DNA from: Gammaproteobacteria bacterium
GTDB taxonomy: Bacteria > Pseudomonadota > Gammaproteobacteria > HTCC5015
Length of the DNA: 64,000 nucleotides
Direction: 5' to 3'
Assembly: GCA_028284675.1 (NCBI GenBank)
Contig: JANQRI010000005.1
Span: 31,997-95,996 of the forward strand
The notes beneath the pieces are model-generated. The model ran no database searches, was not told where the DNA came from, and saw nothing but the letters and a program-made list of their open reading frames with translations. Position numbers and translations under genes: made by a program. Positions 13,959 to 50,988 of the stretch are shown piece after piece; within the stretch, counting starts at the first letter, position 1; each line of letters opens with the position of its first letter.

Positions 13959-13985
13959 GGGTTTATTGAACAGGTTGTATGCCCT

Positions 13986-26774: not shown

Positions 26775-28172
26775 ATGACCGATCAGTTATCCGAAAAAGA
26801 GATAGAGCTGGAACGCGAACTTAATGAGCGTAAGCAGGTCCTGTCCGAAGCCCGTGCCGAATTTGAAGCTGCCGAAACTGCTTATGAGCAGTTGCGTAAA
26901 AAGCATGATACCGCGCAAAGGCTTGATCAACTTGCGAAGCAACTGGCTGAACTCGCACAACTTAATCCGCTAAATGAGGAAAGCCCGTTTACCGGTGAAT
27001 CACTGGAGGGGGCTGATCAGGTTAATCAGCATTATGCTGAGCTGGTTGAGCGTATCAATGCTCAGGTCGGGGCTTTTAGAAAGCGCTATAACGAAGCTGA
27101 GTCCAGGGTAAAAGCTGCAGAGAAAGAATTAACCGTCGCGCGGCAGGCGAGCAATAAAGTGGCCGGCGAGCTTGAGCAGGCAAGGCCATTGGTTCGTACC
27201 AGCACAATCATGCGGACCGGCAGTGATGGTGTTGAAAGAGCTTATGTAGTTATTTATCGGCGTGACACGGTGATGCCCTGGTCTGAAGCGACCAAGGATA
27301 AAAGGCGGTTCCGTAAGGCTGTTGTTCGTATCACGCTGTTGATGTTGATACTGGCGATTATCCTGCCTTTCATACCATTGCCGGAACCCAAAGAAATAGA
27401 GGTGATTGAAATTCCTGAAAGGGTCGCCCAGCTGATTCAGGAGCGTAAGCCCCCGCCGCCGCCTCCACCTCCGCCACCCAAGAAAGCTGACAAGCAACCC
27501 AAGGATGCAAAGAAAAAGCAGCTTAAGCCGCGCAAACAGGCGCCTAAAGCGAAAACAGAAGTGGCCAAAGCCGCGCGTGAAAAAGCCCAGCGTTCCGGTT
27601 TGCTGGCTTTTCGGGAAAGCTTTGCCGACCTGATGGACAATAGCGCTGAGGCCAAATTGGGTAAGCAGGCCAGAGTGACCAGCGGCGGTCAGACCGCAAG
27701 AAAAACCGAACGCTCTTTAATCACAACTGCTGCGGGTAAAGGCAGCCAGGGTATTAATGTTGCAAGTTTAAGTCGTGATGTTGCCGGAACCGGGCTAAAA
27801 GGGCGAGGCACCAGTCGGGTAACCGGGGTTATCGGTGATGAGTTCGGTGATGCTGACAGACCGTTGGCTGAGTCTATCCGGGGTTCACGCACTGATGAAG
27901 AGATACAGCTGGTTTTTGATCGAAATAAAAGCGCGCTATATTCGATTTATCAGCGTGAATTAAGGAAAAACCCGACCCTCAAAGGTAAAATCGTGCTGAA
28001 AATCACGATTGCACCATCCGGTAAGGTGTTGGCTTCCGCGGTGGTTTCCAGTGATCTTAATAGCCCGGAACTGGAGCGCAAAATTGCTGCCCGTGTGAAG
28101 CTTTTCAATTTTGGCGGCAAAGACGTAGATACCATTACGATAAATTACCCGATAGACTTTCTGCCTGCCTGA
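26775..28172 (+). CDS. Atypical TonB-like energy transducer (AgmX/PglI-like C-terminal domain, from memory of that family)
   Basis: 465-aa ORF with about 180 aa of N-terminal coiled coil and a single TM (ITLLMLILAIILPFIPL). A run of 10 Pro (27450-27479) is followed by a Lys-rich linker. The C-terminus has a TonB_C-like fold signature (KGKIVLKITIAPSGKVLASAVVSS...ITINYPIDF). Confidence 0.8.
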   Translation: MTDQLSEKEIELERELNERKQVLSEARAEFEAAETAYEQLRKKHDTAQRLDQLAKQLAELAQLNPLNEESPFTGESLEGADQVNQHYAELVERINAQVGAFRKRYNEAESRVKAAEKELTVARQASNKVAGELEQARPLVRTSTIMRTGSDGVERAYVVIYRRDTVMPWSEATKDKRRFRKAVVRITLLMLILAIILPFIPLPEPKEIEVIEIPERVAQLIQERKPPPPPPPPPPKKADKQPKDAKKKQLKPRKQAPKAKTEVAKAAREKAQRSGLLAFRESFADLMDNSAEAKLGKQARVTSGGQTARKTERSLITTAAGKGSQGINVASLSRDVAGTGLKGRGTSRVTGVIGDEFGDADRPLAESIRGSRTDEEIQLVFDRNKSALYSIYQRELRKNPTLKGKIVLKITIAPSGKVLASAVVSSDLNSPELERKIAARVKLFNFGGKDVDTITINYPIDFLPA

Positions 28173-28556
28173 TCCGTATATTTTAATAACGGAAACACTC
28201 TGGAAATCTGTGTGTTTTATTAAAAAATATGCGTGCTTATACGCGCGTTGGTTGTGCTTGCAGGAATCTGCTGCTCCAAAATGATTGGCTTGCAAAGTTT
28301 AAAAACCGGTTTTTTCAATGCTTAAATTTAGTTTAATTCCGGTGCTTTCGGGCTCTTCCGCTAAGAGGTGCTATTTGTTAGACTAGCGGCGATGATAAGT
28401 ATTGTAAAAACAATAAGTTAGGGCTATTTTATTATAAGGATCATTTAATGCGAGGCATATCACGGTTGCAATCCCAGGGACGGCTAAAATAAGCCGGATA
28501 TCCTGAATCAGAATGCCTGATCAGGACAACTTTAAATTTGGTTTTAGTTTAATTTG

Positions 28557-31500
28557 ATGCCCAATAAAAAAATAACAAGGCAGGTATTACCGCTTATCAG
28601 GTACTGCTTTTTTGGCTTTAGCCTGCTTGCCTTGTTGACTGTGCATCCCATAGCTAGAGCTGTTCCGCTTATAAACTCTGCGACTCAGTTTACTCCTGCA
28701 GATACAGCCCGTGACCCTGATTCAGTGCCGAACAACGGCGATGAATATATGGATTCCGCGGGTGTATGGAATGGTCTTGTCGAAGTTACCAATACCACCG
28801 GCGATAGTTTTCAGATTACGCTGACTAACAGCGCGGCCGGTGCACCCGATCCGCTGGTAGACGATGTTGCATTCGATATCGGATTGACCCTGAATGTACC
28901 TGCCGGGTTTCGCTTGCCGGTAAGCCCGTTCAATGTAACCACTGCCGCCACTGGTGGCGACCCGGGTGCGGCTAATTGTGTGGCGCCCGGTGGTGGCACG
29001 ATTACCGCAACCCAGGCCGGTGGTGCCGGTACCCCAATCACGTTCAATATCCCGGCCGATACCAATTTGCCGGCACGGGCCCCTTGTAACTACTCTTTCC
29101 AGTTTGGGCTGACGACCAATGACAGTGCTCCTTTCGTAACCGGCGGCAACTACCAACTGGATTACGATTTTAGCTATAACGAGATTGATGATGATGCCGG
29201 TTCTCAACAAACCACGAACGCGATGCAAAGTGTTGAGGTGCGTGAAGGGGATATCATCATCGTAAAAGCAGCTGTGCCGAATCCGGCGGACCCGAACGGT
29301 GCCTATGCAGATGGTGAAACCGCCGAATGGACTGTATCCGTATTCGGTAACGGTAATGGCGGCAGCTTTGCAGTGCTAATAACTGATTTGTTGAATATCA
29401 ATTTTGATGCGGCGACGTTGCAGTTGACACCGCCGGCAAATCCACCGGGTACGCCGTTCCCTGTGCCTGTGGGTAACAATCAGTACACAATTAACTATCT
29501 GGCTCCCGGGCAACGTGTTGATATCACGGTGCAGGCGAATGTAGCGGTTCCGGCGAATGCAGCAAGTTGCCCTGATTTGCGCAATGATGTAAATGCTGCC
29601 GATCGCCTTGGCAATGCCAGTGCATCGTTTGATTCGGTGGTGTTTGATTTGCAGGATCCATTGCTGGCTTATACGCCGAACGATATTAACATTCCGTTTG
29701 GCGGCACTGACACGGTCAGTTTTAATGTGACCAACCCGGGCTTGGGTGCTGACGGGGGTACTGCAAGAAATATCGTGCTGGATGTCAGTGGTCTTGCCGG
29801 TTTTACCGTGTCCAATGTGTCCGCGCTATGGGCCTTTGACGGCACCAGCCAATTCACTTATCTGGGGCTAGACGGTTTACCGGCTTCCGGTGATGAAATT
29901 CTGGTCAACGGCGGTTCGGCGTTACTGCAATTTGATGTGGGTATGGGGACCTGTGGCGGTCCGGCCGCCAGCACACTGACCTGGACACCCAGTTATGAAA
30001 ACCTGTGTGGGCTTTCGTTTACTCCGCCGATAGAAACATCAACCATTACAGTTGTTAACGAACCGACCTTGGGTATCACCAAGGCTGTTGCACCGGGTGT
30101 CACTAACTTTGGTCAGCCGGCCGTGTATACAATCGATATCACCGGAGCGAACGCGGGCGGCTTGCCGACTGTCGCTGGAGTAGATAATGACTGGACGGTG
30201 ACTGATACATTGCCGCCAGGTGTCAGTGCCGGGGTGATTCCAGCAGTCCCCACCGGCACGATAATTACGATCGGTGCTACAGTATTTACCGATGTTGATA
30301 CAAATATCCCGGTGACTGCCGGCGATACGATTATCTGGCAGGGTGACCGTGATGACCTGGTTCCGACGCTGCCCTCCATAACGGTGAACTTTACCGTTGA
30401 TAGTGGTCCGTTTTGTCCTCCTGATCCGCCGATTACCATTGGCAATACCGCGACACTTGACTATCCGAGTTGTGGCATCAATGTGGCAGACGGTGCCGCA
30501 TTACTTGTGAACGATAGTCCGATTGATGGTGCGCTGCAGCAGTTTACGATTTCAGCCGGTACTCCGGCGCCATTTGAAACCGGTCGGCCTGATACTGATC
30601 TGGTCGCGGTGAATGAAGCAAATGAAGGTGAGCGGATTACCTTTACCGCGACTTACCAGTTTCCTGTGGGTTATCCGGGTATCTGGAGCGGTTCATCCTT
30701 AACCACTGAGATGGGTACCGGCGCCGGCGGTTTAGCGGGTTCACCGTTGCAGCTGGCCTTTGTCGACGGGAATGGAGATGATTTGCCGACTGCCGGGGAA
30801 GTCAGCGGTGTGACGGTTCAGGTGACCAATCCAGGTGGTCCGGATTTTCCGTTAACCAATCTGACGATCGGTGCCGCAGCAGGCCAGGTTACCGTAAACC
30901 CGGGAGGTACGATCACAATAGCAAACCTCGATTTTATCGGTGCAGTGGTCGGTGCCAATATGGCCGATACCACTTTCACGATTGCCTACACTGTCACTGC
31001 ACCGGAAGGTAATCTGGATGCAAATCTGCAGCCGCTGGATGAGGTTAACATTGGCGCATTTACCGAGCGCCTCACATTCTCAGTGGCGAACAACCCGGCC
31101 AGTTGCGGTGGCGGAATTGATTTTACTCAGGGGATTACCGGGATTCAGCTGGAGCGTTCCGATGTCGGCATTGGCGGTAATATCAGCACAACCAACGATG
31201 CCGGTGCTTGCGGTCCGACCACTGCGACCATTGATATCACCGCGCCGCCGGCCGGTGGGCTTAATGCCGATAATATCCGTATTTTATTGCAGGGCACGGA
31301 CTATGTATTGCCGAATATGGTCGGCGATTATACCTTCGGCGGTGCCGGCAACCTGGCTGCGCTCAATCCGACGATCAGTTTTGCCGGCAGTGATGTAATT
31401 ATTGAAGTTACGCCGGGTGACGGCGGTAACCTGACCGGTGATTCGACAATCAGTTTTCCGGTAAATCTAAATGCCGCGGCGGCTGCGCGTGATTTGCCGG

Positions 31501-34500
31501 CAACGGTGTTCTTTGACAGCAATCACACCTCGCCTGATTTTTCTATCGCGCTGGAAAGCGATGAAGACTATAACAATGCTGCGGTGCTGGCCGGTCCGGT
31601 GCAAACCGCAAATCTGGATGTCGAGTTTTTTCCGCCGAATGTGATACTCGGTGATCCGAATAATTTTGCCGATGTTGATCCCGGTCAACCCGGACTCGAA
31701 GGGGTGTTTACCTGGCTGGTCAGAATCACCAATGTCGGCACTAATACCGTTTCGGGTTATGTGTTTTCGAACATGGTGCCGCCGGGCTTTTTACCGTTTC
31801 GTGCCGGTTCATCTCCGGTCGCGGATGCCGGTCTGCTGACCGATCCGCTGATGGTCTGGAGCGGTTTACCTGATTTGTTGCCGGGCGGTTCGGTTGAGAT
31901 CACTGTTGCGATCGGATTGCCGCAAAACGCCGGTTGTAATGTGGGTAATCCGAATCAAACCACGGTTGCTTCCGGCTGTGTTGATGGCACCACGCTGTTT
32001 ACTGAAAACGGCCCGAATGTTTTGTTTCCGGTTATTGATCTGCAGCTTGAGCACCTGGATACCAGTTTCTGTGAATTATGCCGTGATGGTACGGTGGAGC
32101 TGGAAGTGCGTAACGAAGGTGCCTCTGATTTATACGATGTTGTTGTAACCGAAAATCTCGCCGGTTCCGGTTTGGAATATGTGTTGGGCAGCACCGAAGT
32201 ATTTGTCGAAGGCACTGCCGGATTCGTTGCGGTTGGTGATAATGCTGCAACCAATGCCACGCAAATTGTTTGGGATAGCACAAACATTGCGGCATTGGGA
32301 CAGCTGCTATCCGAGATTAACGGTATGCCGTCTGAAATGACGATTCGGTTCCGGGTCCGGTCCTCAGACCCGAACGCGGAAAACCTGGTTGCGGCAAACC
32401 GGAATATCAGTGCAAGCGGGGATTTTAATTTGTTTTGCGGTGATCCGGGTTTGCCATTGGTGGTCGATAATTTTCAGGTGCCCTTGCGTCAGCCGCAGCC
32501 GCAGGTGGAGAAACTTGGCCGAAACTTTTCGGCGCGGCAGACCGCAGCTGATTATGCCGACCCGGTATTTGGTGGTACAGATGACATCGTGATCTGGCAG
32601 GTTGACGTTGCGAACAGTGGTGTAACTTCATCCGCTGATTTGGAAGACTTGCTGGTTAACGATACGGTTGCACCAGGCCTTAACTTTACGCTGCAATTTG
32701 TTTGTCCGACTGAGGCTGATGCGGATGCCCGCGCGGTCGCACTGGAAACATTGGTGGCTCCGGCAGATGCATGTATACCGTATTTACCGGTGTTAGATGT
32801 CGATGACCCTTTCGGTAACCCGGGTAATGACCAGCCCGGTACGTTTATCGATGCTGCGGCCGGTAGCAGCGCTTTTGTTTATTACGTCGGTACGATTCAG
32901 AATCTTTGTACCAATGAAAATAATAATGTTGATATCCAGTGGGGTTGTGAGTCGAACAGTCCACCTGCGGGCGGTATCAATGCTGACGGTAGTGGCGGTG
33001 CATTATCGGCAGGCCTTGCCGCAGGCGATGATGATGACAGTGCATTTCTGAGTACGACCGTTGATCCGAATGGTGTGCTGGTCACACAAACCTTTACCGG
33101 AACCAATACGGCTCAACCTGTGGGCACGAAAGGTATTCTGACAATTACCGTCACCAATAACAGCGGTGGTACGGTACGTGATCTTATTTTAACCGATACC
33201 CTGCCGACCGATTACGAGTTGGATTTGACCTCATTGAATCCGCCAAATACGCCATTTGTTGTGAATCCTGCATTTGGTGTGTATCCAGGTATTGCCGATA
33301 CGTTTGCGGTTAATGCGACCAATCCGAATCAGCCGGTGTTTACATTTACCAGCTCAACCCAGGGGACGGTGAACCAGGCAAATTTATTGCGTAATGGTGA
33401 TGAGTTGGTTTTGACCGTGGGTGTAGTGCGGGTGCGGCCGTTTGATAATGTTAATGACCCTGAAGTCAGAACCGAGAACCCAGGTGACGGTACCGACCCG
33501 GATTATGCCCCACCGTTGCCGGCGGACGACGATAACACCGTCAGCCTGCAGTTCAGTAATACCTGTGGCACTGTATTCACTGATGCAGACAGTGTAAATC
33601 TGCCAAGCGTTATAGACGTTAATATCAACCCCGAGGATATCGATGTCGATATTAATCCGGCTGATCCTAACCTGCTGTTTATTCTCAGTGACCCGACCGC
33701 GACATTAAACTTCAATGTTGTCGTTAGCAATAACGGTGGTCATGACGCAAGCGACTATGATACTTACGTAACCGTGGGTAACGGTATCGATCCCGGAGTG
33801 ATACCGGCCGGGTGTGCACTGGCTGCCCCACCGGCTGAGCTTGGTTTTCCGCCAACAAATCCGGCAGGCATATTGCCGCCGGAATATAACCCGGCTGATT
33901 CACTGACGTTTCGTTGTGTAACCACCGACCCAATACCTCCAGGCGGTTCCGATACATTTGGCTTTACCATACAGCGCGCATTGCCGTTGGGTGTGTCCGG
34001 AGACTTAACATTTCGTGCCGATGTATTGGCACGCACTACATTAAGCGACGGGTCCGCGCCACCGGACCGGGGGGCGGCCGGTTATCCTTATTACTCCAAG
34101 GATAATATTCTTGCCCGTATTATTGGTTTTAATTTATTTAAAACATTTTTCGGAAACTGCAGTGAGGATAATCCCCCGCCGGTTGCGAACGGTAATGTGA
34201 TTATCGGTGAAGAATGTACGTTTGAAGTCGAGGCTGAATGGTTTGGTTTCGCAACACCCGGTTTTGGCAATATTGAAGTACGCAATCCGCGCATCTATGA
34301 GGGTGCGCTCACGAACAACCCGCCGCCGCCCGAGGGCAACCCCGGTGTTGATCCGCCAAACCTGCCGGATACTTTGGACGGGCAGGGGCTGGTGAGTATT
34401 GATACCACGGCCAGCAGCGCCGGTGTCAGTGTTGCGGTACAAAACCCGGCCGCACCCGCAGCGCTGGCCGAAACCGGATTGGCCTGGCGGTTAAATAATA

Positions 34501-37500
34501 TTGCCGCGGTTGGTAATACCGAAGAACGTTTTATCGCGCGGGTGCGTTGGCGAACATTGAATGACCCGGTGAATACTTCGGCCGTGCCAAACCTGCATGC
34601 GGCATTACAAAATGATGAAGTGAACGCGCGTTTTGATGTGTTTTTCTCAGGCACTGGTGCAACAGTGAGTTTTGATGAAACCACCGCAGGCTATCCACCG
34701 GCCGCATTGCGTATTGCCAGTGTCGTCGTAACCGAACCGAATGTCACGATTACCAAAGAAGTTTGTAACGAATCGATATCGATTGCTAACAACCCGGCTG
34801 ATTCGGGAGCAAACTGCCAGCCGTTTGTCGCATTGCCTGGTTTGGTTATGGGGGATTCGGATGATTTATTTATTTATCGTCTGACGGTGAATAATGAAGC
34901 GGCCGCATCCGGTGTTCCCAGAGCGCCGGCTTATGATGTTGCGATCAATGACAGTTTTGATGCGAGCGACCAGATCGCCCCGTTCGATTTCACCACTGAC
35001 GGGCTGGACAATGACGGCGACGGATTGGTTGATGCAGCGGATCTTGACGGCGAAGGCACGGTCGATGACCTGGTGCTGGTGAACGGCAACCCGGCGGATA
35101 TTACCATTGATTCGGCTAACAGCACGGCGTTGGCGCAGGTTGATCCCGGTGCCACGGTTGAGTTGTTTTATCGCGCGCGTCTGGACAATATGGTGACGCC
35201 GACCCAGCAGCTGATCAACACGGCAGACGGCACGTATGATAGTTTACCCGGCGCGTCCGGATCACAGTCGGCACCGCTAGGTGCCAGCGGTGCGTTAGGC
35301 GGCGCACGGCAATACAATATTCCACAGGCTCAGGCAACGATCGAAATCGATAACATCGTAGTTAATCCCGGTTCCAAGGAATTTATCGACAGTGCAAGGC
35401 GTGATGCAGGTCTGGTTGCGGGCGTCTGTGCATCACCCTGTGTGGATGAGAATGTCGTGATCGGTGAAGAGGTCATGGTGGAGCTGGAATTCACGCTGCC
35501 ATTGTCCGAATTGCGTCAATTTGCACTGGAGGACAATCTGCCGGCCGGTATTGAATGTATCGAGGCAATGGATATCGTGCTGCCGGTATTTAATCCGCCG
35601 GCAGTGGATCCGGGTTTTACCCCGGGCGGTGTATTTCCGGCGGCGACCTGTGATGCGAACCTGGTGCGTTGGGATTTAAGTCTGGCCGGCGATCAGACTC
35701 TGCAGGGCACCGGCGGTACGATGCAGTTCGATGTGCAGGCACGATTTATTGCCCGCGTACAAAATACTGTGGTCACAAACAACGGTGGCATTATCGCCAA
35801 TGGGGGTGCATCCACGAATGTGAATGTTTCCTATCGCGATGCCGGCAACACGCTGGTGATGATTCCGATCGACGAAGCACGATTGACCGTGCAAGAGCCG
35901 GTTGTTACGGTCACCAAAACAATGGACCCGGTCGCACCGGCGATAACAGTCGATGCACGTGATTTGATTAATGTGACGGTGCAGGTGCAAAACAACGGTA
36001 CCTCGCCGGCATACAATTTAAGATTGCAGGATGATTTAACCGCGCCCGGCACGAATCTGACTTATATCGCCGGCAGTCAGGGTGGTGCGAATATACCGGA
36101 TGTGATTGATTTAACGATACCAAATGCACCGGTATTTATTTTCAATAATCCATTGCCGCCCGCTGGTACCTTTACGTTTACGTTCCAGGTGCGTGCGGCG
36201 GATATCGTACAGCCTCTGGAAGAACTCAATAATACCGTGGCTGCCCGTTTTACCTCGTTACCCAATAACAATGTTGCGTTGAATGCGGGTGGTGCCATCG
36301 GTTTGGATGGTGCGCCCAACGGTATGCGGACCGGTGCGATCCCGCCGGCCGGAGATCCGGTGAATGACTATGAAGCACAAGGCGTGGATCAGGAAATCGT
36401 GCCGCCGTTGACGATTGTGAAAAACGATCTGACTCCCGGCGTACCGACGACAATCGGGGTCAGGAAAAATTTTGAAGTTGTACTGACCCTGCCGGAGGGT
36501 GTTAGCAACGGTGTGATTGTAAATGACAATCTGATGGCCGGTACAACCAGCTTTGTGCTGGAGAATAATGCTGCTTTCGATATCGTTTATACGTTTCAGG
36601 ATATCGTCAGCATCAACGGCGTGCCGGTTGCCGGTTTTGCAACGCCCGCAGATGCGGAAGCGGCGATGGCGGCATTTACCGCGGTTGATGCCGCCACCGG
36701 CCTGGTAATCTGGAACTTCGGCAATGTTGTGACTGCGATAGAGCAGGACCCGCTAACCACCGTGGTGAATCCACGCATTGTGATTAATTATTTTGCACGG
36801 GTCGGCAACAATGTGACGACTGTAGCCGGTGCAACTTTACAGAATGCAGCCGATTCGAATTATATTAATGGCGAAAACGGTGGTGTTGAAGTTATTAATG
36901 CGCCGTTGTTAGGGCCGTTTGTCGTGGTGGAGCCGGATTTGGTCGTGAATAAAACCGGTCCGGCGGTCATGAACCCGGCAGTACCGGCTTCATTTACGAT
37001 TACCGCGGACAATATCGGCACATCAACTGCGTGGGATGTCACAATCACCGATTTATTACCAAACCTGGATCCGGCTCCAGGTGGTATGTGCGATAACGCG
37101 CCGGTGATAACCGCGATTGATGTGGCCGGCCGTGCACTGGTGGAGAATGTTGATTATACGTTAACGTTTAATCCGGCACCGGCCTGTACGTTTTTAATTA
37201 CATTAATACCGACTGATGCTGCGCCGCCGGCTAACAATGCGCGTATCGATGCCGGTGAGACGCTGACGGTTGTTTACGATCATGTCCTCGACGCAGATAC
37301 GGCTTCGGCAACCAATCTGACCAATATTGCCGGCGCGACCCAGTGGTTTAGTTTGGACACCGACGGTGTGTTGGTGCCGCCGGAAATCAGAACCTATAAC
37401 CGGGTATTAACCAACGGTACGGTCGGCGTGCCTGATCATGAAGATGCGCATACGCTATTGGCTCAAGGGCCGGTATTGTCCATATCGAAGTTGGTTACAA

Positions 37501-40500
37501 ACTTAACCACAGGGCAGGGGCCTGCTGTCAATGTCAGTGCAAGCCCCGGGGATGATTTGCAATTTACATTGCAAGTGGATAACACCGGACCCGTTGCGGG
37601 GAATAATGTTCGGGTGTTTGATGACCCTGATTTATTGAATACACCGCCGGGTTATTACGAAAATTTTTCCACAGATCCGACCGAAAGGCTGCGGAATGTA
37701 ACAATCAGTGCGCCCGCTACGGATAACTCATTGGTCGGTGGTGGTGTTAACAACTCGGGTTTTCTGGATATTACGCTAAATACGCTTGATGCCTGCCCGG
37801 CACCGCCGGCCTGTCCGCCGGGCAGTTCTGCAACCGTTACCTTCGATATTACATTGGATCAGGAAATCCTGAACACCGCGGTGCTGGATAATCGCGCGTC
37901 GACCAGCGTTTTAGGTTTACTTCCAGTGAATTCGAATTTGGTGCAGGTGCAGGTTGGCCAGACGCCAGGTCTTATTGTTGAAAAAACCTCACAGGATTTG
38001 ACAGGTGATCCGAATGTGCTCGCGGTGGGTGATCAACTGCGCTATACGATTACCGCAAAAAATATTTCAAATGAAAACGCGGTTAATGTGTTATTACGCG
38101 ATCAGATTCCGGCCAATACCACTTATGTTGCAAACAGTACTTTCCTGAACGGTTTTGCGGTGGCGGATCCGGCCGCGAATACTTCGGCATTAACCGATGG
38201 TTTGCTGATTAATTCGGTTGATGTTGCGGTGCCCGGGTTTATGACCGCAAATCCGGATCCGGCAGTGAATAATGTTGCAACGATACAGTTTACTGTCACT
38301 GTAAACAGCAATCTTGTGAACGGCACGGTTATTTCAAACCAGGGTGTCGTAACCGGTCTGGGTGAAAACAACGGTCTGGGCTTTGTGCCGATTCTCAGCG
38401 ATGATCCGGCCACACCGGTTGCGAACGATCCGACCCAGGATATTGTCGGCAGCGGTCCGATTATCGATGCGCAGAAACAAGTCAGTATTGTTGCCGGCGG
38501 TGCCGACGGCACCGCGGATCCGGGTGATACCCTGCGTTATACCATCACGGTGTTTAACAGTGGCAACAGTCCAGCCACCGGAGTTCGGCTACGCGATGCG
38601 GTGCCGGCCAGTACGACGTATGCAGCGGATACTGTATCTCTAAACGGTCTTCCGGTTGCGCAACCTGACGGTGGTATTTCGCCGCTGATTGCGGGTATCG
38701 ATATCAGTTCCAGTGATTTGACGCCGCCGTTACCGGGTGCTGGTGCCGGAACTTTGTCTGCAGGTGGCGTTGCAACCATTGTTTTCGATGTGACGATCAA
38801 TGGCGGCACTGCAGCGGGTACGATAATCAGCAACCAGGGTTTCATTACCTCCAATCAGCTGCCGGAAGAACCAACCGATCAGGATGGTAATGATGAAAAC
38901 GGTGATCAGCCGACTGAAATTGTCGTTGGCGGCATCCCGGAACTGGAAATTACTAAAGAAGTTGTGATTGTCGGTGGCGGTACTGCGCAGGCAGGCGGGC
39001 AGCTGGAATATCTGATCCGGGTTGAGAATACCGGGCCGGTGGCTGCGGATAATATCGTTATAAGCGATACGATGCCGGCATTGACGACCTATGTTAACGG
39101 GTCCGGCCGGATCAACGGCGCAGTCGCGGGTGTCACGTTTGCCGGTAATGTGTTGACTGCTGATTACACTTCGGTGTTTGGTACTTTGGGGCCGGGTGAC
39201 TTTTTCCTGGTCACGTTCAGGGTGCAGATTGATGCATTGGGTAATCCGGGTCAGTCGATCGATAATACTGCGAACCTGGTTTGGAATGATGGGGCGCCAC
39301 CGAATTTTAATGCGGCTGATTCGGCCAGTGTCGATATCGGCGGGGCACCGGGTGTCGTCAACTTAAATGGCCTGATCTGGCATGATGCCAATCACAATGA
39401 TTTGTTTGATCCGCTGCTTGAACAGTCATTGCAGGGTTGGGAAGTGCAGGTGTATTTTAATAATGCCGCGCCTACCTCTGCGGATACGCCTATCGCAACT
39501 GCACCGCTGACCAGTGACAGCGGTTTGTTTAGTTTTAACGGTTTGTCACCGGGCGGGCCTTATACGGTTACATTTGCATTGCCCGCCAATAATGTTGCAC
39601 TGGGTGAGACGGTATCGACTGCCGGTACGGCCGGCTTGATGATTATTACCGATATATTTGGCAGTGCCGGTAATAATCTCCAGGATGAAAATCTCGCGGT
39701 TGAACCGACAGGCGTCGTTTACAATTCGGTCAGCCGCACCGGTGTCGGCGGTGCGCGAGTACGATTGGTACGCCCGGATGGTTCGCCGGTTCCCGCGGGT
39801 TGTTTTATAACTCCTGCACATTTGACCAATCAGCAAGGCAATAGCCCTGAGTTGCTTGGGCAGGTTACCCCGGGATTTCAAACCAGTGCCAGTGGACAGG
39901 AAGTTCCTGCGCAGGCCGGTTTCTATCGTTTCGACCTGAATTTTACAGATCCGGTTAATTGCCCAATTGGTCTGTCGGATTATCAAATCCAGGTTATAGT
40001 ACCGAACGAAGATGATTTTGTTGCCGGCGTATCGGGCGTAATACCGCCGGATACCGGTCCGGTCAATCTAAATACCTGTACCGCACCGGCCGGCCAATCG
40101 GTGGATACCATACCACCGCCGCCAGCAAGCACCTGTGATATCCAGGCACAGGGTTTGCCGCCTGATCCTGTCATTCCGCGCGGTAACGGCACGCGTTATT
40201 TTCTGGATCTGCAACTGGGTCAGACTTCGCAGAGCCTGTTTAATAATCATATTCCATTGGATCCTGTATTGGACGGTGTGGTCGCTATCGCGAAAACCAC
40301 ACCGTTAAAGAATGTTGTAAAAGGTCAGTTGGTTCCATATACGATTACATTGACCAATTCATTTACTTTCCCGCTGACCGGATTGTTTGTTCTCGATAAT
40401 TTTCCGGCAGGTTTTAAATATGTTGAAGGTTCTGCACAGATCAATGGTGTCAGCACTGAGCCGGTAGTTGACGGCCTGACGTTAACCTGGAGTGATCTGA

Positions 40501-41264
40501 CTTTGCAGGGGCTCGATACGATGACAATTAAGTTGTTATTAATTGTTGGTGCCGGTGTTGGCGAAGGCGAGTATACCAATACCGCACAAGCGTTTATTGC
40601 CGGCCTGGCCGGTTCTGTTTCCGGTGTCGCCAGTGCCACAGTACGCGTCGTACCGGACCCGACTTTTGATTGTTCAGATGTAGTCGGCAAGGTTTATGAT
40701 GATCGCAATGCGAATGGTTATCCGGATAGCGGGGAACCGGGTATCCCGGGTGCAAGAGTGGTTACCGCCAGGGGGCTGGTGATCACCGCTGATCAATTCG
40801 GTCGTTTTCATGTTGTTTGTGCGGCGGTACCGAACCCTGACCGTGGTTCTAATTTTATTATAAAGCTTGATGAACGGAGTCTGCCTTCCGGATATCGGGT
40901 AACCACTGAAAACCCGAGAGTCCAACGCCTGACCCGTGGTAAAGCCGCGAAGTTTAATTTCGGTGTCACCGTGCACCGAGTCGTGCGTGTTGATCTGACC
41001 GATGCGGCGTTTGAGCCGGGTGGTGCCGAGATACGTGAACACTGGCATTATGTGATCGACGATTTATTTAAGCAATTGCGCGAAGGTCCTTCAGTATTAA
41101 GGCTGTCATACCTGGGTGACAGAGAGTCCGGCAGTCTGGCTGCACGGCGGGTCAAAGCAACCAAGAAGCTGATCGCCAAACGCTGGAAGGCATTAAGTTG
41201 TTGCTACAACCTGCAGATTGAAACCGAAGTATTCTGGCGTACCGGCCGGCCGGGGGACAAGTGA
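28557..41264 (+). CDS. Giant (4,235-aa) secreted surface protein built of DUF11-type and prealbumin/SdrD-B-like beta-sandwich repeats; putative adhesin
   Basis: Uninterrupted 12.7-kb ORF (TTG 28554 / ATG 28557) with Sec signal peptide MPNKKITRQVLPLIRYCFFGFSLLALLTVHPIARA. It has many modules of the form L-x-[IV]-x-K...Y-x-[IV]-x-V-x-N-x-G...A-x-N-V-x-[IV]-x-D-x-[LI]-P, for example LIVEKTS...LRYTITAKNISNENAVNVLLRDQIP. Composition is acidic and rich in Thr, Gly, Asn, Val and Pro. Confidence 0.9.
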   Translation: MPNKKITRQVLPLIRYCFFGFSLLALLTVHPIARAVPLINSATQFTPADTARDPDSVPNNGDEYMDSAGVWNGLVEVTNTTGDSFQITLTNSAAGAPDPLVDDVAFDIGLTLNVPAGFRLPVSPFNVTTAATGGDPGAANCVAPGGGTITATQAGGAGTPITFNIPADTNLPARAPCNYSFQFGLTTNDSAPFVTGGNYQLDYDFSYNEIDDDAGSQQTTNAMQSVEVREGDIIIVKAAVPNPADPNGAYADGETAEWTVSVFGNGNGGSFAVLITDLLNINFDAATLQLTPPANPPGTPFPVPVGNNQYTINYLAPGQRVDITVQANVAVPANAASCPDLRNDVNAADRLGNASASFDSVVFDLQDPLLAYTPNDINIPFGGTDTVSFNVTNPGLGADGGTARNIVLDVSGLAGFTVSNVSALWAFDGTSQFTYLGLDGLPASGDEILVNGGSALLQFDVGMGTCGGPAASTLTWTPSYENLCGLSFTPPIETSTITVVNEPTLGITKAVAPGVTNFGQPAVYTIDITGANAGGLPTVAGVDNDWTVTDTLPPGVSAGVIPAVPTGTIITIGATVFTDVDTNIPVTAGDTIIWQGDRDDLVPTLPSITVNFTVDSGPFCPPDPPITIGNTATLDYPSCGINVADGAALLVNDSPIDGALQQFTISAGTPAPFETGRPDTDLVAVNEANEGERITFTATYQFPVGYPGIWSGSSLTTEMGTGAGGLAGSPLQLAFVDGNGDDLPTAGEVSGVTVQVTNPGGPDFPLTNLTIGAAAGQVTVNPGGTITIANLDFIGAVVGANMADTTFTIAYTVTAPEGNLDANLQPLDEVNIGAFTERLTFSVANNPASCGGGIDFTQGITGIQLERSDVGIGGNISTTNDAGACGPTTATIDITAPPAGGLNADNIRILLQGTDYVLPNMVGDYTFGGAGNLAALNPTISFAGSDVIIEVTPGDGGNLTGDSTISFPVNLNAAAAARDLPATVFFDSNHTSPDFSIALESDEDYNNAAVLAGPVQTANLDVEFFPPNVILGDPNNFADVDPGQPGLEGVFTWLVRITNVGTNTVSGYVFSNMVPPGFLPFRAGSSPVADAGLLTDPLMVWSGLPDLLPGGSVEITVAIGLPQNAGCNVGNPNQTTVASGCVDGTTLFTENGPNVLFPVIDLQLEHLDTSFCELCRDGTVELEVRNEGASDLYDVVVTENLAGSGLEYVLGSTEVFVEGTAGFVAVGDNAATNATQIVWDSTNIAALGQLLSEINGMPSEMTIRFRVRSSDPNAENLVAANRNISASGDFNLFCGDPGLPLVVDNFQVPLRQPQPQVEKLGRNFSARQTAADYADPVFGGTDDIVIWQVDVANSGVTSSADLEDLLVNDTVAPGLNFTLQFVCPTEADADARAVALETLVAPADACIPYLPVLDVDDPFGNPGNDQPGTFIDAAAGSSAFVYYVGTIQNLCTNENNNVDIQWGCESNSPPAGGINADGSGGALSAGLAAGDDDDSAFLSTTVDPNGVLVTQTFTGTNTAQPVGTKGILTITVTNNSGGTVRDLILTDTLPTDYELDLTSLNPPNTPFVVNPAFGVYPGIADTFAVNATNPNQPVFTFTSSTQGTVNQANLLRNGDELVLTVGVVRVRPFDNVNDPEVRTENPGDGTDPDYAPPLPADDDNTVSLQFSNTCGTVFTDADSVNLPSVIDVNINPEDIDVDINPADPNLLFILSDPTATLNFNVVVSNNGGHDASDYDTYVTVGNGIDPGVIPAGCALAAPPAELGFPPTNPAGILPPEYNPADSLTFRCVTTDPIPPGGSDTFGFTIQRALPLGVSGDLTFRADVLARTTLSDGSAPPDRGAAGYPYYSKDNILARIIGFNLFKTFFGNCSEDNPPPVANGNVIIGEECTFEVEAEWFGFATPGFGNIEVRNPRIYEGALTNNPPPPEGNPGVDPPNLPDTLDGQGLVSIDTTASSAGVSVAVQNPAAPAALAETGLAWRLNNIAAVGNTEERFIARVRWRTLNDPVNTSAVPNLHAALQNDEVNARFDVFFSGTGATVSFDETTAGYPPAALRIASVVVTEPNVTITKEVCNESISIANNPADSGANCQPFVALPGLVMGDSDDLFIYRLTVNNEAAASGVPRAPAYDVAINDSFDASDQIAPFDFTTDGLDNDGDGLVDAADLDGEGTVDDLVLVNGNPADITIDSANSTALAQVDPGATVELFYRARLDNMVTPTQQLINTADGTYDSLPGASGSQSAPLGASGALGGARQYNIPQAQATIEIDNIVVNPGSKEFIDSARRDAGLVAGVCASPCVDENVVIGEEVMVELEFTLPLSELRQFALEDNLPAGIECIEAMDIVLPVFNPPAVDPGFTPGGVFPAATCDANLVRWDLSLAGDQTLQGTGGTMQFDVQARFIARVQNTVVTNNGGIIANGGASTNVNVSYRDAGNTLVMIPIDEARLTVQEPVVTVTKTMDPVAPAITVDARDLINVTVQVQNNGTSPAYNLRLQDDLTAPGTNLTYIAGSQGGANIPDVIDLTIPNAPVFIFNNPLPPAGTFTFTFQVRAADIVQPLEELNNTVAARFTSLPNNNVALNAGGAIGLDGAPNGMRTGAIPPAGDPVNDYEAQGVDQEIVPPLTIVKNDLTPGVPTTIGVRKNFEVVLTLPEGVSNGVIVNDNLMAGTTSFVLENNAAFDIVYTFQDIVSINGVPVAGFATPADAEAAMAAFTAVDAATGLVIWNFGNVVTAIEQDPLTTVVNPRIVINYFARVGNNVTTVAGATLQNAADSNYINGENGGVEVINAPLLGPFVVVEPDLVVNKTGPAVMNPAVPASFTITADNIGTSTAWDVTITDLLPNLDPAPGGMCDNAPVITAIDVAGRALVENVDYTLTFNPAPACTFLITLIPTDAAPPANNARIDAGETLTVVYDHVLDADTASATNLTNIAGATQWFSLDTDGVLVPPEIRTYNRVLTNGTVGVPDHEDAHTLLAQGPVLSISKLVTNLTTGQGPAVNVSASPGDDLQFTLQVDNTGPVAGNNVRVFDDPDLLNTPPGYYENFSTDPTERLRNVTISAPATDNSLVGGGVNNSGFLDITLNTLDACPAPPACPPGSSATVTFDITLDQEILNTAVLDNRASTSVLGLLPVNSNLVQVQVGQTPGLIVEKTSQDLTGDPNVLAVGDQLRYTITAKNISNENAVNVLLRDQIPANTTYVANSTFLNGFAVADPAANTSALTDGLLINSVDVAVPGFMTANPDPAVNNVATIQFTVTVNSNLVNGTVISNQGVVTGLGENNGLGFVPILSDDPATPVANDPTQDIVGSGPIIDAQKQVSIVAGGADGTADPGDTLRYTITVFNSGNSPATGVRLRDAVPASTTYAADTVSLNGLPVAQPDGGISPLIAGIDISSSDLTPPLPGAGAGTLSAGGVATIVFDVTINGGTAAGTIISNQGFITSNQLPEEPTDQDGNDENGDQPTEIVVGGIPELEITKEVVIVGGGTAQAGGQLEYLIRVENTGPVAADNIVISDTMPALTTYVNGSGRINGAVAGVTFAGNVLTADYTSVFGTLGPGDFFLVTFRVQIDALGNPGQSIDNTANLVWNDGAPPNFNAADSASVDIGGAPGVVNLNGLIWHDANHNDLFDPLLEQSLQGWEVQVYFNNAAPTSADTPIATAPLTSDSGLFSFNGLSPGGPYTVTFALPANNVALGETVSTAGTAGLMIITDIFGSAGNNLQDENLAVEPTGVVYNSVSRTGVGGARVRLVRPDGSPVPAGCFITPAHLTNQQGNSPELLGQVTPGFQTSASGQEVPAQAGFYRFDLNFTDPVNCPIGLSDYQIQVIVPNEDDFVAGVSGVIPPDTGPVNLNTCTAPAGQSVDTIPPPPASTCDIQAQGLPPDPVIPRGNGTRYFLDLQLGQTSQSLFNNHIPLDPVLDGVVAIAKTTPLKNVVKGQLVPYTITLTNSFTFPLTGLFVLDNFPAGFKYVEGSAQINGVSTEPVVDGLTLTWSDLTLQGLDTMTIKLLLIVGAGVGEGEYTNTAQAFIAGLAGSVSGVASATVRVVPDPTFDCSDVVGKVYDDRNANGYPDSGEPGIPGARVVTARGLVITADQFGRFHVVCAAVPNPDRGSNFIIKLDERSLPSGYRVTTENPRVQRLTRGKAAKFNFGVTVHRVVRVDLTDAAFEPGGAEIREHWHYVIDDLFKQLREGPSVLRLSYLGDRESGSLAARRVKATKKLIAKRWKALSCCYNLQIETEVFWRTGRPGDK
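37971..39350 (+). repeat. Three consecutive ~160-aa canonical DUF11 repeats (protein-level, divergent at DNA level)
   Basis: The repeats start at LIVEKTSQDL (37971), IIDAQKQVS (about 38460) and ELEITKEVV (about 38940). Each carries the GDxLxYTI-x-V-x-N-x-G...V-x-[LI]-x-D-x-[IVM]P-x-x-T-x-Y pattern. Confidence 0.65.
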
Positions 41265-44200
41265 TGCGCTTCCGGTACGCGATTTTGTATTATTTGCTCG
41301 GTGGTTTGCCGTCAGTCGCGGTTTTTGCGCAGGATGATGTAACGGATAAAAACTGTCCGCAAGGTATTTGTCAGGTGATACCCGATTGCGAGGCGGAGGG
41401 CCTAAGTGAAGAAGAATGCGAGTCATATCAGCGTTCCCGTGCACGCGGGCGTATGCAGGACCAAAATAAAATTATTGAACCGGGTTTTTCGTTACGGAAA
41501 ACCAAATTGCCACAGAACAGTGAAATGCTGTTACCGGACGAGGCATTTACACTGTGGATGCAGGACGAAGAGCAGTTCCGGCCGCAGCAGGATGATGAAG
41601 TGGTTTTTGAAAAACGGATTGTGCAGGATGCAGAGACTATCAAGCTCGATGGGCTTGTTGATCCGGTTCGCTTTAGTTCCGGGCGTGACGATATTCCGGA
41701 GGAGTTTATTGGCCAGCTTCGTGATGTACTGAATGATATGCAGGGGCGTGCCAATGTCCGCTTGCATTTTATCGGCCATACCGATAATCAGGCTTTAAGT
41801 GGCGCATCAAAAGCGCGCTACGGTGACAACATCGGTTTGTCTGCAGCCCGCAGCCGGATGGTCGCCGAGTTTTTTCAACGTGCGCTGGGCTTGCCGCCTG
41901 AGGCGGTTTCATTTGAAGGTCGTGGTGCTGATGAACCGTTAGGGTCGAATGATACCGCAAGTGGCAGAGCGTTAAACCGGCGTGTCGAAGTGGAAGTCTG
42001 GTACGATGAAATTACCGAGAGAGAGGTTGAAGAGCAGGCGATCGGTGGGCCGGAAATGACCCGAATAAAAGTCTGCCGCGTGATGCAGCGTTGTATTTAC
42101 AAACGCAAAACAGGCAACTACAAAAAAATTCAGGTCATTAACGCGGTACCGCCGTTACGTTACGAAGGTACCCAGGTTGATATTGACAGTGCATATTTTT
42201 CACGTTTGCGTAAAGCGCTGGCTGATGTTGAGGATATGCCGAATGTTGCGATCCGGGTGGTCGGGCATACCGATAACCAGCCGCTGACCGGCGCTGTAGA
42301 ACGCATTTACACCGACCGAATTAATTTGTCGAAAGCATTGGCGAACCGGGTTGCACGGGTTATTCAGGAAACATTGAAACTCTCGAATACCGACGTAAGT
42401 GCTTTTGGAAAAGGCGAAACTGCACCGGTTGCACCGAATACCACTGCCAGCGGCCGGGCATTGAACCGCAGGGTTGAGGTGGAAATCTGGCATGATGATC
42501 CACGCGGCACTACCGTAAGCAAGCCGCTCGCCTGTCCGGGTGCGGCAGAGGCTGAGATGGTTACGCAAAAATATGAAGATGAAAAAATCATCGTGCCGTT
42601 CAAAAACGGTCAGCCGGCGTATCCGAATGGGTTTGTGCCGCGCGTGCAACGTATTCTGACCGAGTTGCGCGATAAAACCAATGTGCGCATCAATTTCTCC
42701 GGCCATACGACCAATGAGCGCCTGACCCGGCGCGCGGCCATGGTTTACGGTGATCATATGGGCTTGTCTGAGGCGCGTGGCCGACGGGTGATGCGCTATA
42801 CACAGGAGCAGCTGCAACTGACCGACGAACAGGTTCAGCATGAAGGCCGCGGTTTTATCGAGCCATTAAATAAACCGGATGATTCACCGTTTGCGCGTAA
42901 AACATTCAGTCGCCTCGGCCAGGATAATGATCCAATCGTGAACCCGGCCGATGCGCGGGTTGAACTGGAATTTTTATTCGATGAACTGGCCAAGGTTGAA
43001 GAGGACCCGAATCTGGAAATCGTGCCGGTCATGCAGGAAGAGCAGCCGGTCAGCCCGTTTTCATTGCAGCCGATCAGAGTCACCGTGGATGGGGTTACGC
43101 TGGATGATTCACGCCGGCATTCAGCCGATGTGCAGCGTTGTACCGATCTGGAGCTGGATAAGGTCAATATACAGCTTGCATACGATAATTTGCGTCAGTC
43201 ACCGCGACTGAATGTGCAGGCCGTGCCGGCAACCGTAACATTTTGGGATGATCCGGATACCGAGCCGATGGAAAACAAAGTGCGGTTCAAAGCCTATTCA
43301 AATTACCGCGCTTATATCGCGCGTGCTGAAGTGCGTGTTTATGATGCAGAGCAGTCTCTGCAGTCCGAGCCGCTGGAAGTGCTGCCGCTAAATGAAGAGC
43401 TTTATGCGGAATGGTGGTGGATACCCGAGATCCGGCCGTTCGAAGGACCGGTCAAAGAGCTGCGTTACGTGCTGCGTGTATACGACGATAAAGGCCGTTT
43501 CGATCAAACCGCCGCGAAACCACTGTGGGTGGTTAATCAGTTGAAATCGCCGGAATTTTTGCAGGAAATGGATACTGTTGCGGAACAACGTGTGGTGTAT
43601 GGTGAAAATCACCTGGCGAAGCGCGGTATTCCGGTCAATGGCGGCACGATCACCGTGAACGGTGAGCAGGTTGCTGATGGTTATACGGTATGGATTATGA
43701 ATCAGGCGGTGCCGCTGTCTGAGGACAACGCATTTGTTACTGAGCAGATTATTCCCGATGGCTTGCATTCAGTTGAAGTTGCCGTGTTGGATGGTGAAGG
43801 GAGCGGTAGTTTGTATCTGCGTGATCTCAGGTTAAAACGCAGTGACTGGTTTTATGTCGGTATCGCGGATCTGACGCTGGGTGTTGATGATACCGAAGGG
43901 CCGGCCGCGTTGGTGACCACCGATGATACTCATTATGAGAGTGATTTTTGGGCGGATGGCCGTATTGCGTTTTACACCAAAGGCAAAACCAAAGGTGATT
44001 TTACGATCACCGCAAGTGCGGACAGTCGCGAAGAGCCGTTAGAAGACTTGTTCAGCAATTTTGACCAGAAAGACCCTGATGCGGTTTTTCGTCGGCTTGA
44101 TCCTGATTACTTTTACCCGACTTACGGTGATGACAGCACCACAATAGAAGATGCACCGACCAGTGGCCGGTTTTTCGTGAAAGCTGAAAAAAATGAATCG

Positions 44201-50931: not shown

Positions 50932-50988
50932 TAAGGCTGAATATCAGGCCTTTATTGCAACGAGCAGAGTGATTAGTAGGGGTGTGAA

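Follow-up and report, generated by a model that had tools for sequence, protein, structure and literature searches.

A giant CLIPPER-repeat protein as the candidate passenger of a conserved, motor-linked outer-membrane system

We analysed 64,000 nucleotides (nt) of the genome of a Gammaproteobacteria bacterium of the HTCC5015 lineage (assembly GCA_028284675.1, contig JANQRI010000005.1, positions 31,997 to 95,996 of the forward strand; this whole stretch is called the window, and all positions are counted from its first letter). The window carries a gene for a giant, Sec-dependent protein built of DUF11-like repeats, which is directly followed by a gene that we call ORF2 (ORF, open reading frame) and preceded by a block of nine genes. 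The best reading of these sequences is that a conserved, uncharacterised outer-membrane system linked to a motor has the giant protein as its cargo or passenger. With moderate confidence we propose a surface fibre of autotransporter-like design that is split over two genes, with the giant as the passenger half and ORF2 as the outer-membrane half, and we place the two in an 11-gene, envelope-spanning system around the ancestral Agl-Glt core complex. The giant gene, the parts of its product and ORF2 are as follows (aa, amino acids).

28554 (TTG) or 28557 (ATG) to 41264, plus strand: giant protein ORF, stop codon TGA at 41262-41264, 4,235 aa counted from the ATG.
28557-28661, plus strand: Sec signal peptide of the giant, aa 1-35, predicted cleavage between ARA and V.
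28662-35156, plus strand: lineage-specific N-terminal part of the giant, aa 36 to ~2200, divergent beta-sandwich/CLIPPER-like modules.
35157-40283, plus strand: family-conserved stalk of the giant, aa ~2200-3909, CLIPPER/DUF11, DUF7619 and SdrD_B modules with candidate isopeptide lysines.
40284-41264, plus strand: conserved C-terminal module of the giant, aa 3910-4235, stop codon included.
41264-46516, plus strand: ORF2, 1,750 aa, signal peptide (cleavage between AVFA and QDD), OmpA domains and a C-terminal beta-barrel.

The stop codon of the giant gene overlaps the start codon of ORF2 (TGATG, 41262-41266), and this arrangement recurs across the family. In 80 of 81 loci the ORF2 homologue is immediately preceded by a sequence homologous, at 44-71% identity, to the last 110 aa of the giant; the sole exception has just 265 nt of upstream sequence. 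The loci span Gamma- and Betaproteobacteria, Desulfuromonadales, Desulfobacterales and metagenome-assembled genomes (MAGs) assigned to Gemmatimonadota and Acidobacteria. In every locus with enough DNA the upstream frame is a giant ORF, the shorter apparent ORFs being frameshifted continuations. The distance from the giant stop to the first possible ORF2 start has a median of -4 nt (83 pairs), overlaps of -4 or -1 nt being dominant, and in two loci (L025 and L077) the genes are fused. Fusions were also found in the protein database. An exhaustive search with aa 560-1751 of ORF2 gave 3,797 cluster representatives (1,120 at E<=1e-30), and among the best 150 of these there are at least 30 natural fusion proteins of 1,900-6,889 aa with the ORF2 module at the C-terminus. 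In most of them as many as 28 DUF11-like repeats come first, followed by the C-terminal module of the giant (E 1e-20 to 1e-99), by none to three OmpA domains and by the barrel; many begin with a signal-peptide-like N-terminus, and Pfam confirmed the DUF11, SdrD_B and OmpA architecture in three. One natural fusion is the representative P0373, with 3,297 aa. Since such fusions exist in nature, the giant and ORF2 of the window appear to be the split form of a single passenger-plus-barrel design, and they are very probably physical partners.

ORF2 has three OmpA-like domains (aa ~136-246, 320-410 and 470-575). PF00691 matched with 86 bits, two stretches lying above threshold and carrying GHTD and NRRVE motifs; the third domain is a degenerate copy read from the sequence. 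In a profile search against the PDB the OmpA domains matched structures of MotB, PomB, TssL and Pal, and no other part of ORF2 found a match. Beyond them lie beta-sandwich domains (aa ~630-880) and about 27 predicted strands (aa ~1270-1750). No Pfam or NCBIfam family covers the ~1,190 residues of aa 560-1751, apart from weak matches to the generic OMP_b-brl and DUF481 families, and the same two collections gave no Omp85/POTRA or autotransporter barrel domain. An AlphaFold2 model of this region, built on 32 sequences, has about 27 consecutive long strands in its last 480 residues. All Foldseek matches of the model in the PDB were outer-membrane barrels of 22-26 strands (Cir, BtuB, LptD, MtrB), and neither Foldseek nor the profile search found a specific structural relative of the barrel in the PDB.

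The protein is conserved over its full length: identity is at least 49% in the 120 best matches, with a mean column identity of 60% in their alignment, and 46-70% across the 80 genome loci retained. Relatives of ORF2 are encoded in at least 567 species-representative genomes, including those of Microbulbifer, Alcanivorax, Cellvibrionaceae, Thiohalomonas, Moraxellaceae, Sideroxyarcus, Geobacter/Geotalea, other Desulfuromonadales and Desulfobacterales, and MAGs assigned to Gemmatimonadota and Acidobacteria. Most representatives of the barrel module (for example, P0400, P0410 and P0423) are ~1,130-1,400 aa long and have neither the three OmpA domains nor a fused passenger; the unannotated barrel module is thus a far larger family than the ORF2 type.

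An uninterrupted frame of about 4,236 codons is not attainable by chance in DNA of about 50% GC, and so we regard the giant ORF as real; indeed, an identical 4,235-aa sequence is present as a public NCBI-derived protein record. The protein starts with a classical Sec signal peptide, as the initial annotation of this DNA had read: an n-region MPNKKITRQ, an h-region VLPLIRYCFFGFSLLALLTV with a Kyte-Doolittle peak of 2.4, and a c-region HPIARA followed by V. Homologues with complete N-termini have signal peptides too, ending in AQA, VQA or ALA. The DUF11 repeat architecture was likewise borne out, by Pfam (169 bits in six stretches) and by the NCBIfam model TIGR01451 of the DUF11-type repeat (193 bits), and a profile iterated on the giant and its complete homologues delineated 14 DUF11-like modules between aa 245 and 4036, so that the protein has at least this number. 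SdrD_B and DUF7619 also matched, as did the isopeptide-forming pilin domain TIGR04226 (2.5e-13). PF01345 now bears the name CLIPPER and is a stalk domain, CnaA-like and isopeptide-bonded, that is characteristic of cell-surface fibrillar adhesins (PMC12617251). By its domain content, therefore, the giant is a CLIPPER fibrillar adhesin.

Conservation is distributed very unevenly along the giant. The last 326 aa are its most conserved part (55-70% identity, more than 1,200 database proteins), the stalk (aa ~2200-3909) is covered in 34-71 of 79 loci, and aa 36 to ~2200 are matched by few or no homologues in other loci. This N-terminal part, which holds four DUF11-like modules and is common to close relatives only (L083-L091), is presumably the distal adhesive end. 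Across the family only the C-terminal 1,500-2,000 aa are shared, the N-terminal 2,200-2,700 aa being present in close relatives only, and the proteins vary in length from ~1,650 aa (L104, L116) through ~2,850 aa (the Desulfuromonadales type) to 4,347 and 4,665 aa (L162 and L163, respectively). The suggestion of the initial annotation that the gene is old and stably maintained thus applies to the C-terminal 1,500-2,000 aa, which are conserved across phyla, but not to the lineage-specific N-terminal portion. Its observation that the DNA lacks near-identical tandem repeats was confirmed: Tandem Repeats Finder reported just four trivial arrays of 15-19 nt, and the longest dispersed direct repeat is 34 nt with 71% identity.

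An AlphaFold2 model of the C-terminal 326 aa (predicted local distance difference test, pLDDT, 88.8) comprises a CLIPPER immunoglobulin-like (Ig-like) domain, then a sandwich resembling SdrD_B, and lastly a tail (aa ~4137-4235) with its elements in the order beta-alpha-beta-alpha-beta, which is also the order of an OmpA-like fold. Foldseek matched this model to Gram-positive pilins, SdrD and the CLIPPER structure 9IFR, a result dominated by the Ig domains; in a profile search of the PDB aimed at the tail, a motif of the SdrD B-repeat was the sole match. The giant contains 35 lysines. Setting aside those of the signal peptide and of the last 190 aa leaves 21, of which about 13 are found in a hydrophobic-x-K motif at module starts, the location of the CLIPPER isopeptide lysine (PMC12617251). 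These lysines, together with the TIGR04226 match, are suggestive of Lys-Asn isopeptide bonds. Of the 42 cysteines, most lie pairwise close to one another. This stalk chemistry, together with a distal end that varies and a proximal end that is conserved, would be expected of a surface fibre held by its C-terminus.

Upstream of the giant, the nine genes of the block share its strand, with short gaps or overlaps between most of them.

18137-18679, plus strand: u180, 180 aa, small secreted protein with signal peptide, the first gene of the nine-gene block.
18689-20698, plus strand: GltC-like TPR protein, 669 aa, Sec signal peptide, TPR matches, syntenic in the related loci.
20695-23901, plus strand: GltD-like TPR lipoprotein, 1,068 aa, lipobox LSSC read from the sequence, syntenic everywhere.
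23855-24550, plus strand: GltE-like TPR lipoprotein, 231 aa, lipobox LVGC, matches to TPR families.
24547-24825, plus strand: s92, 92 aa, small secreted protein between the GltE-like and AglR-like genes.
25036-25689, plus strand: AglR-like MotA/TolQ/ExbB proton channel, 217 aa, PF01618 with 84 bits.
25689-26228, plus strand: ExbD/TolR-like protein 1, 179 aa, PF02472, FLNLM with Asn at the site of the usual transmembrane Asp.
26225-26728, plus strand: ExbD/TolR-like protein 2, 167 aa, PF02472, LMDVF with the canonical transmembrane Asp.
26775-28172, plus strand: GltG-like force transducer of the TonB/TolA type, 465 aa, with a cytoplasmic coiled coil, one transmembrane helix, a poly-proline stretch and an AgmX/PglI (TonB_C-like) C-terminal domain.

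A core complex of GltC, GltD, GltE and GltG with AglR, AglQ and AglS has been described, with its function unknown, as a gene cluster in Gammaproteobacteria, one betaproteobacterium, Geobacter and Fibrobacter; it includes one extra gene that is absent from Myxococcales (Luciano 2011, PMC3169522). The block of the window resembles it in having one ExbB/TolQ-like gene, two ExbD/TolR-like genes, three TPR proteins, an extra small gene and a GltG-type protein with an AgmX/PglI domain, in the order and with the sizes of the published Geobacter and gammaproteobacterial cores. In Table S3 of that study the Geobacter genes are listed as Gura_3070 (GltG, 484 aa), Gura_3071 and Gura_3072 (166 aa each), Gura_3073 (AglR, 211 aa) and Gura_3075 (GltE, 240 aa, close in size to the GltE-like protein); the GltC-like protein agrees in position and size with GltC (673 aa) of the published core. 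The same table skips one locus tag at the place of s92 (Gura_3074, Maqu_1599 and Sde_2958). Because order and sizes agree with the tag skipped there, the extra gene of the published core most likely corresponds to s92. Judged by content and order, through family models and synteny with the published Geobacter core, the nine genes qualify as an Agl-Glt core complex.

The individual matches are graded. The AglR-like protein is 63-70% identical to its homologues in Desulfuromonadales and Geobacter loci. The GltG-like protein exceeds the cutoff of the AgmX/PglI model NF033768 (67.9 bits, cutoff 40) and also matches models of GltG (9e-14), GltJ (3e-8) and tonB_Cterm (1e-4); with 50.9 bits against a cutoff of 650 for the GltG equivalog model, it is a relative rather than an equivalog. 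The GltE-like protein matched the NCBIfam model gliding_GltE at 2e-12, below the model cutoff; the GltD-like protein matched TPR_6, YfiO, YbgF and, weakly, PorW/SprE (6.9e-11); and TolQ and TolR models matched the motor proteins at scores below cutoff. Neither u180 nor s92 matched a Pfam or NCBIfam family, and both recur across loci: u180 homologues (43-57% identity) directly precede the GltC-like gene in 22 genome loci and many metagenome loci, and s92 is conserved at the same position in 17 genome loci as well as in metagenome loci. The ExbD-like pair, differing in Asn versus Asp, suggests a heteromeric stator with one proton-carrying subunit type.

The core is shared with the Myxococcus machines for gliding (Agl-Glt) and spore-coat assembly (Agl-Nfs; Luciano 2011, Wartel 2013), from which the cluster differs in several respects. 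Family scans, which did not include a direct search with the Myxococcus proteins, detected in the cluster none of the Group A genes gltA, gltB, gltF, gltH, gltI, gltJ and gltK and no adhesin CglB, the only GltJ match being the C-terminal domain of the GltG-like protein; vWA proteins and small OmpA-like barrel proteins were also absent from the cluster in these scans. Both the outer-membrane module of the Myxococcus machine (barrels GltA, GltB and GltH, lipoprotein GltK and the vWA adhesin CglB) and the cytoplasmic proteins GltI, GltJ and AglZ thus went undetected. The window GltG has a coiled coil where that of Myxococcus has an FHA domain, and the window GltG and GltE both fall below the equivalog cutoffs. 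What sets the block apart from the published core is its linkage to the giant CLIPPER protein and to the 1,750-aa OmpA/barrel protein.

This linkage was seen in two gene orders, in two locus scans that each covered the closest 80 relatives. In about 22 loci of the ORF2-centred scan the block follows the pair (giant, ORF2, u180, GltC, GltD, GltE, s92, AglR, ExbD, ExbD, GltG); the carriers include Desulfuromonadales, Geotalea, Geobacter, Desulfatitalea and an Oceanospirillum MAG, among others. The window and loci L044, L052, L162 and L163 have the block first, with the giant after GltG. An independent scan of metagenomes centred on AglR found the giant after GltG in 16 loci and ORF2 before u180 in three (L103, L126 and L154), and no locus with sufficient flanks in which the block had neither the giant nor ORF2 beside it. 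As the giant-ORF2 pair shifts as a unit relative to the nine-gene block, yet stays adjacent to it, we argue that all eleven genes form one functional system, and we think it likely that the motor block acts together with the giant and ORF2.

Some loci depart from the common pattern. In L103, L107, L113, L130 and L154, where ORF2 precedes the block, a second AglR/ExbB-like gene is found ~3 kb downstream of GltG. Alcanivorax nanhaiticus 19-m-6 has a second giant-like gene downstream of ORF2 (L071:12172-17439 and 20845-21507) that matches aa 1171-2835 of the giant, and may thus have two passengers at one locus. In L164 (GCA_013817245.1, JACDDA010000001.1), the gene directly after the GltG homologue, in the usual place of the giant (12071-14096), is cut short by the end of the contig; in the 675 residues translated from it there are 21 CxxCH haem-binding motifs, which identify a multihaem cytochrome c. 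The passenger of the system may therefore differ between lineages.

We found no sign that the giant uses one of the known export or sorting routes. A motif search for GGxGxD, LPxTG and PEP motifs was negative, and the last 60 aa contain 13 Lys/Arg and six Asp/Glu (net +7), that is, a basic and not an acidic tail. Pfam and NCBIfam searches at E<=1 with the last 104 or 326 aa gave no match to the type IX secretion system (T9SS) C-terminal domain (Por_Secre_tail/TIGR04183), to PEP-CTERM or to other sorting models. Among the window ORFs scanned (at least 150 aa, positions 166 to 53911; 53908-63097 was assumed to continue the dcw cluster and lay outside the scan) there was no ABC transporter, membrane-fusion protein or TolC. 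The initial annotation, which had listed the absence of RTX nonapeptides, of an acidic C-terminal signal, of LPXTG, PEP-CTERM and T9SS domains and of adjacent type I secretion system (T1SS) genes, was therefore correct on each of these points. We rule out the giant as a T1SS/RTX substrate, given its N-terminal Sec signal, the absence of RTX repeats and its basic tail, and as a sortase, PEP-CTERM or T9SS substrate, since the defining motifs and domains are absent. The conclusion then drawn, that the protein has no cognate known exporter, holds in so far as no known exporter genes are nearby, but it missed the OmpA/barrel partner directly downstream and the motor block upstream.

The giant-ORF2 pair resembles type V secretion, both by classical autotransporters (type Va) and by inverse ones such as intimin (type Ve), in design, though not in family: a Sec signal, a long beta-rich passenger and a C-terminal barrel, seen in the natural fusions. 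The split into two genes recalls two-partner secretion of type Vb, and, as in intimin, the barrel protein has a peptidoglycan-binding domain (OmpA here, LysM in intimin). However, the barrel module of ORF2 measures ~1,150 aa, and the strands predicted in it number about 27 or more, as opposed to 12-16 in type V; neither the giant nor ORF2 has a Pfam autotransporter, Omp85/POTRA, two-partner secretion or intimin-type domain; and a proton-motive-force motor, of which type V has none, is linked to the pair. Similarity to the T9SS and SprB-based gliding of Bacteroidota is in logic only, and includes Sec-signal cargo with a conserved C-terminal domain, a giant repetitive adhesin, a very large outer-membrane barrel, TPR lipoproteins and an inner-membrane proton motor. 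In contrast to the T9SS, Por_Secre_tail/TIGR04183 and homologues of GldK, GldL, GldM, GldN and SprA were undetected here with Pfam and NCBIfam, the motor is of the ExbB/ExbD/TonB type and not GldLM, and the carriers are Proteobacteria and Desulfobacterota. The system thus belongs to neither the autotransporters nor the T9SS, because the defining domains of both were tested and are absent.

Giant adhesins of T1SS (LapA, SiiE, BapA, MpIBP) are also repetitive and Ig-like and are anchored in an outer-membrane channel by one terminal domain, but the protein studied here has a Sec signal, no RTX, no acidic C-terminal signal, no ABC, membrane-fusion or TolC partner, and would be anchored by its C-terminus. 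A described CLIPPER fibrillar adhesin for comparison is B9T28_05395 of Acinetobacter silvestris, which has a C-terminal OmpA-like anchor (PDB 9IFR; PMC12617251). Common to both are a signal peptide and CLIPPER modules in tandem, each starting with a lysine and ending in an Asn-rich stretch; Foldseek matched the giant to 9IFR, and an OmpA peptidoglycan-binding function is tied to the C-terminal end. In the window, by contrast, the OmpA domains reside on the separate ORF2 and are followed by a huge barrel, while the tail of the giant itself is at most weakly OmpA-like; linkage to a motor cluster is not described for B9T28_05395 in PMC12617251. Chaperone-usher pili and TonB-dependent transporters alike offer a large barrel (22-24 strands) with accessory beta-sandwich or plug domains; ushers let folded Ig-like subunits through theirs, and TonB-dependent transporters, the top Foldseek matches of ORF2, are driven by an ExbB/ExbD/TonB motor. 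Neither is related to ORF2 in sequence, the similarity being generic (TM-score on the query ~0.15), and no usher, chaperone, plug or TonB-box feature was identified in the window system.

We propose that these parts could work together as follows. Sec would move the 4,235-aa precursor across the inner membrane, and the signal peptide predicted from the sequence would be cut off. The Ig-like CLIPPER/SdrD_B modules would make up a stalk, stiff and poor in lysine, which isopeptide and disulfide bonds probably stabilise and which would run from the lineage-variable N-terminal end to the invariant C-terminal module. The latter would stay in the periplasm, bound to ORF2, which three OmpA-like domains would pin to peptidoglycan, while the very large ORF2 barrel would let the stalk through the outer membrane and hold it on the surface. 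We infer this binding and passage from the adjacency of the genes, the overlap of stop and start codons, and the fusions ordered as passenger, C-terminal module, OmpA and barrel. The ExbB-like channel and the two ExbD-like proteins would use the proton-motive force, and GltG, GltC, GltD and GltE would transmit the work to the ORF2-giant complex, either to push periplasm-folded modules out through the barrel or to pull and move the displayed fibre. The role of the motor is suggested by the conserved gene linkage and by homology to the gliding and spore-coat machines of Myxococcus, where the homologous motor transmits force to the surface adhesin CglB (PMC9946355). A motor may be needed for export because modules with disulfide (perhaps isopeptide) bonds fold before the outer membrane and so lose the folding-driven pull of type V, and a barrel of the size of ORF2 could, like the ushers, pass folded Ig domains.

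Several points weigh against this proposal. All of its functional steps, that is localisation, secretion and energy dependence of the giant system, are drawn from gene context and homology. Classical type V secretion needs no dedicated motor, which makes the part of the motor in export speculative. The ORF2 model has a moderate mean pLDDT of 61.8 (the beta-sandwich region and the barrel reach ~70-90, and the barrel blocks are at ~70-88), and hence strand number and lumen size are uncertain; its Foldseek similarity is generic, with TM-scores on the query of 0.13-0.16. Aligned by hhalign, the tail of the giant falls in register with the first half of the ORF2 OmpA domains, but weakly, at a probability of 10-16%, and no Pfam or NCBIfam model of any kind, OmpA included, matched the last 104 aa even at E<=1. 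In the fusions the peptidoglycan-binding domains stand between passenger and barrel, so that the chain must cross the outer membrane upstream of them, with no obvious long linker. Finally, the linkage holds for this clade, its universality being not proven, as the scans cover the closest relatives, and the linkage data exclude the gene neighbourhoods of fused database proteins.

The same observations can be read differently. ORF2 might by itself export and anchor the giant in a type V-like manner, with the barrel assembly machinery (BAM) and without dedicated energy, the block serving later to tension, move or retract the fibre or to sense load. The giant and ORF2 are indeed the tightest unit of the cluster, with overlapping codons and natural fusions, and move as one block against the nine genes in the two gene orders; moreover, the homologous machine of Myxococcus moves force to a surface adhesin and is not a general exporter (PMC9946355, PMC3169522). 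We nevertheless consider export by ORF2 alone rather unlikely, because the 42 mostly paired cysteines and the isopeptide-type domains suggest folding in the periplasm, which would remove the pull of type V, and because ORF2 has no Omp85/POTRA or autotransporter barrel domain. The cluster could alternatively be a complete gliding apparatus in this organism, with the giant as track or foot adhesin, as Agl-Glt homology and the analogy to Bacteroidetes, in which a proton-driven motor moves the giant adhesin SprB (the type IX motor is mentioned in PMC12204202), would allow. The family scans found no cytoplasmic coupling proteins of the GltI, AglZ or MglA type in the cluster, and we judge this very improbable.

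Two further possibilities would deny the giant its place on the surface or its partners. Together with ORF2 and the Tol-like block, it could form a scaffold in the periplasm, associated with peptidoglycan, whose role, like that of Tol-Pal, would be to stabilise or remodel the envelope; the three peptidoglycan-binding OmpA domains of ORF2, the matches of the GltD-like protein to YbgF/CpoB and BamD models and the below-cutoff TolQ/TolR matches of the motor would fit. A rod of at least 14 Ig-like modules, however, far exceeds the width of the periplasm, a hypervariable N-terminus with a conserved C-terminus is the pattern of an exposed adhesin, CLIPPER is typical of surface fibrillar adhesins (PMC12617251), and the natural fusions have a passenger-then-barrel architecture, all of which render a periplasmic scaffold improbable. 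Least credible to us is the view taken in the initial annotation, of an orphan Sec-dependent adhesin whose exporter is unknown or distal (for example, a T1SS) and whose neighbours are unrelated. It agrees with the absence of known exporter genes among the scanned window ORFs and of a known sorting signal, but the signal peptide, the lack of RTX and the basic tail oppose a T1SS, and adjacency to ORF2 in 80 of 81 loci, the natural fusions and the conserved place of the motor block beside the pair, in two gene orders across phyla, all oppose unrelated neighbours.

The split-fibre proposal can be carried one step further, to a suggestion that we make tentatively and with the odds somewhat against it. 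The cluster may be an unrecognised outer-membrane export and display system and, at the same time, represent the original function of the Agl-Glt core: motor and GltG would push Ig-like modules, already folded, through very large barrels of a new family, the passenger being swappable, and the gliding and spore-coat machines of myxobacteria would be derivatives in which the outer-membrane module was replaced.

The 11-gene cluster is set among housekeeping genes, between pgi (16371-18011) and dus with the dcw genes. The other ORFs scanned (166-53911) are maf, genes of a biotin-dependent carboxylase (biotin-carboxylase and carboxyltransferase/biotin-carrier genes), plsX, fabH, uvrC, pgsA, pcnB, folK, panBC, pgi, dus, mraZ, rsmH and ftsI. 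The dcw cluster (50461-63097) begins with mraZ, followed by rsmH and ftsI, and later ORFs were taken to be its continuation. A 221-aa gene at 47135-47800 was considered as a member of the system and dropped, as it is not conserved in the related loci. An AT-rich leader of 384 nt (28173-28556) precedes the giant gene; Rfam, searched for a riboswitch or another known RNA, gave no match in it, promoter and terminator scans of it were at background level, and no obvious Shine-Dalgarno sequence stands before the giant ATG. Two RNA genes were found elsewhere in the window with Rfam.

10504-10576, plus strand: tRNA gene.
49767-50117, plus strand: bacterial RNase P RNA, class A, 332.7 bits.

The core complex has been termed "standalone", and possibly "a basal transport machinery" (PMC3858216); its function was described as unknown, and its composition as perhaps sufficient for protein secretion (bioRxiv 10.1101/2020.07.22.216333). 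In the literature searched, whose coverage was incomplete, we found no report linking it to a giant DUF11 cargo or to an OmpA/barrel family. The window and about 100 related loci give this complex, which has been without known function or cargo since 2011, a candidate cargo in the giant CLIPPER fibre and a candidate outer-membrane component in the ORF2 barrel. If true, this would explain how Sec-dependent giant adhesins without signatures of T1SS, type V secretion or T9SS reach the surface, would define a widespread, unannotated barrel family, and would show the kind of machine from which bacterial focal-adhesion gliding evolved.

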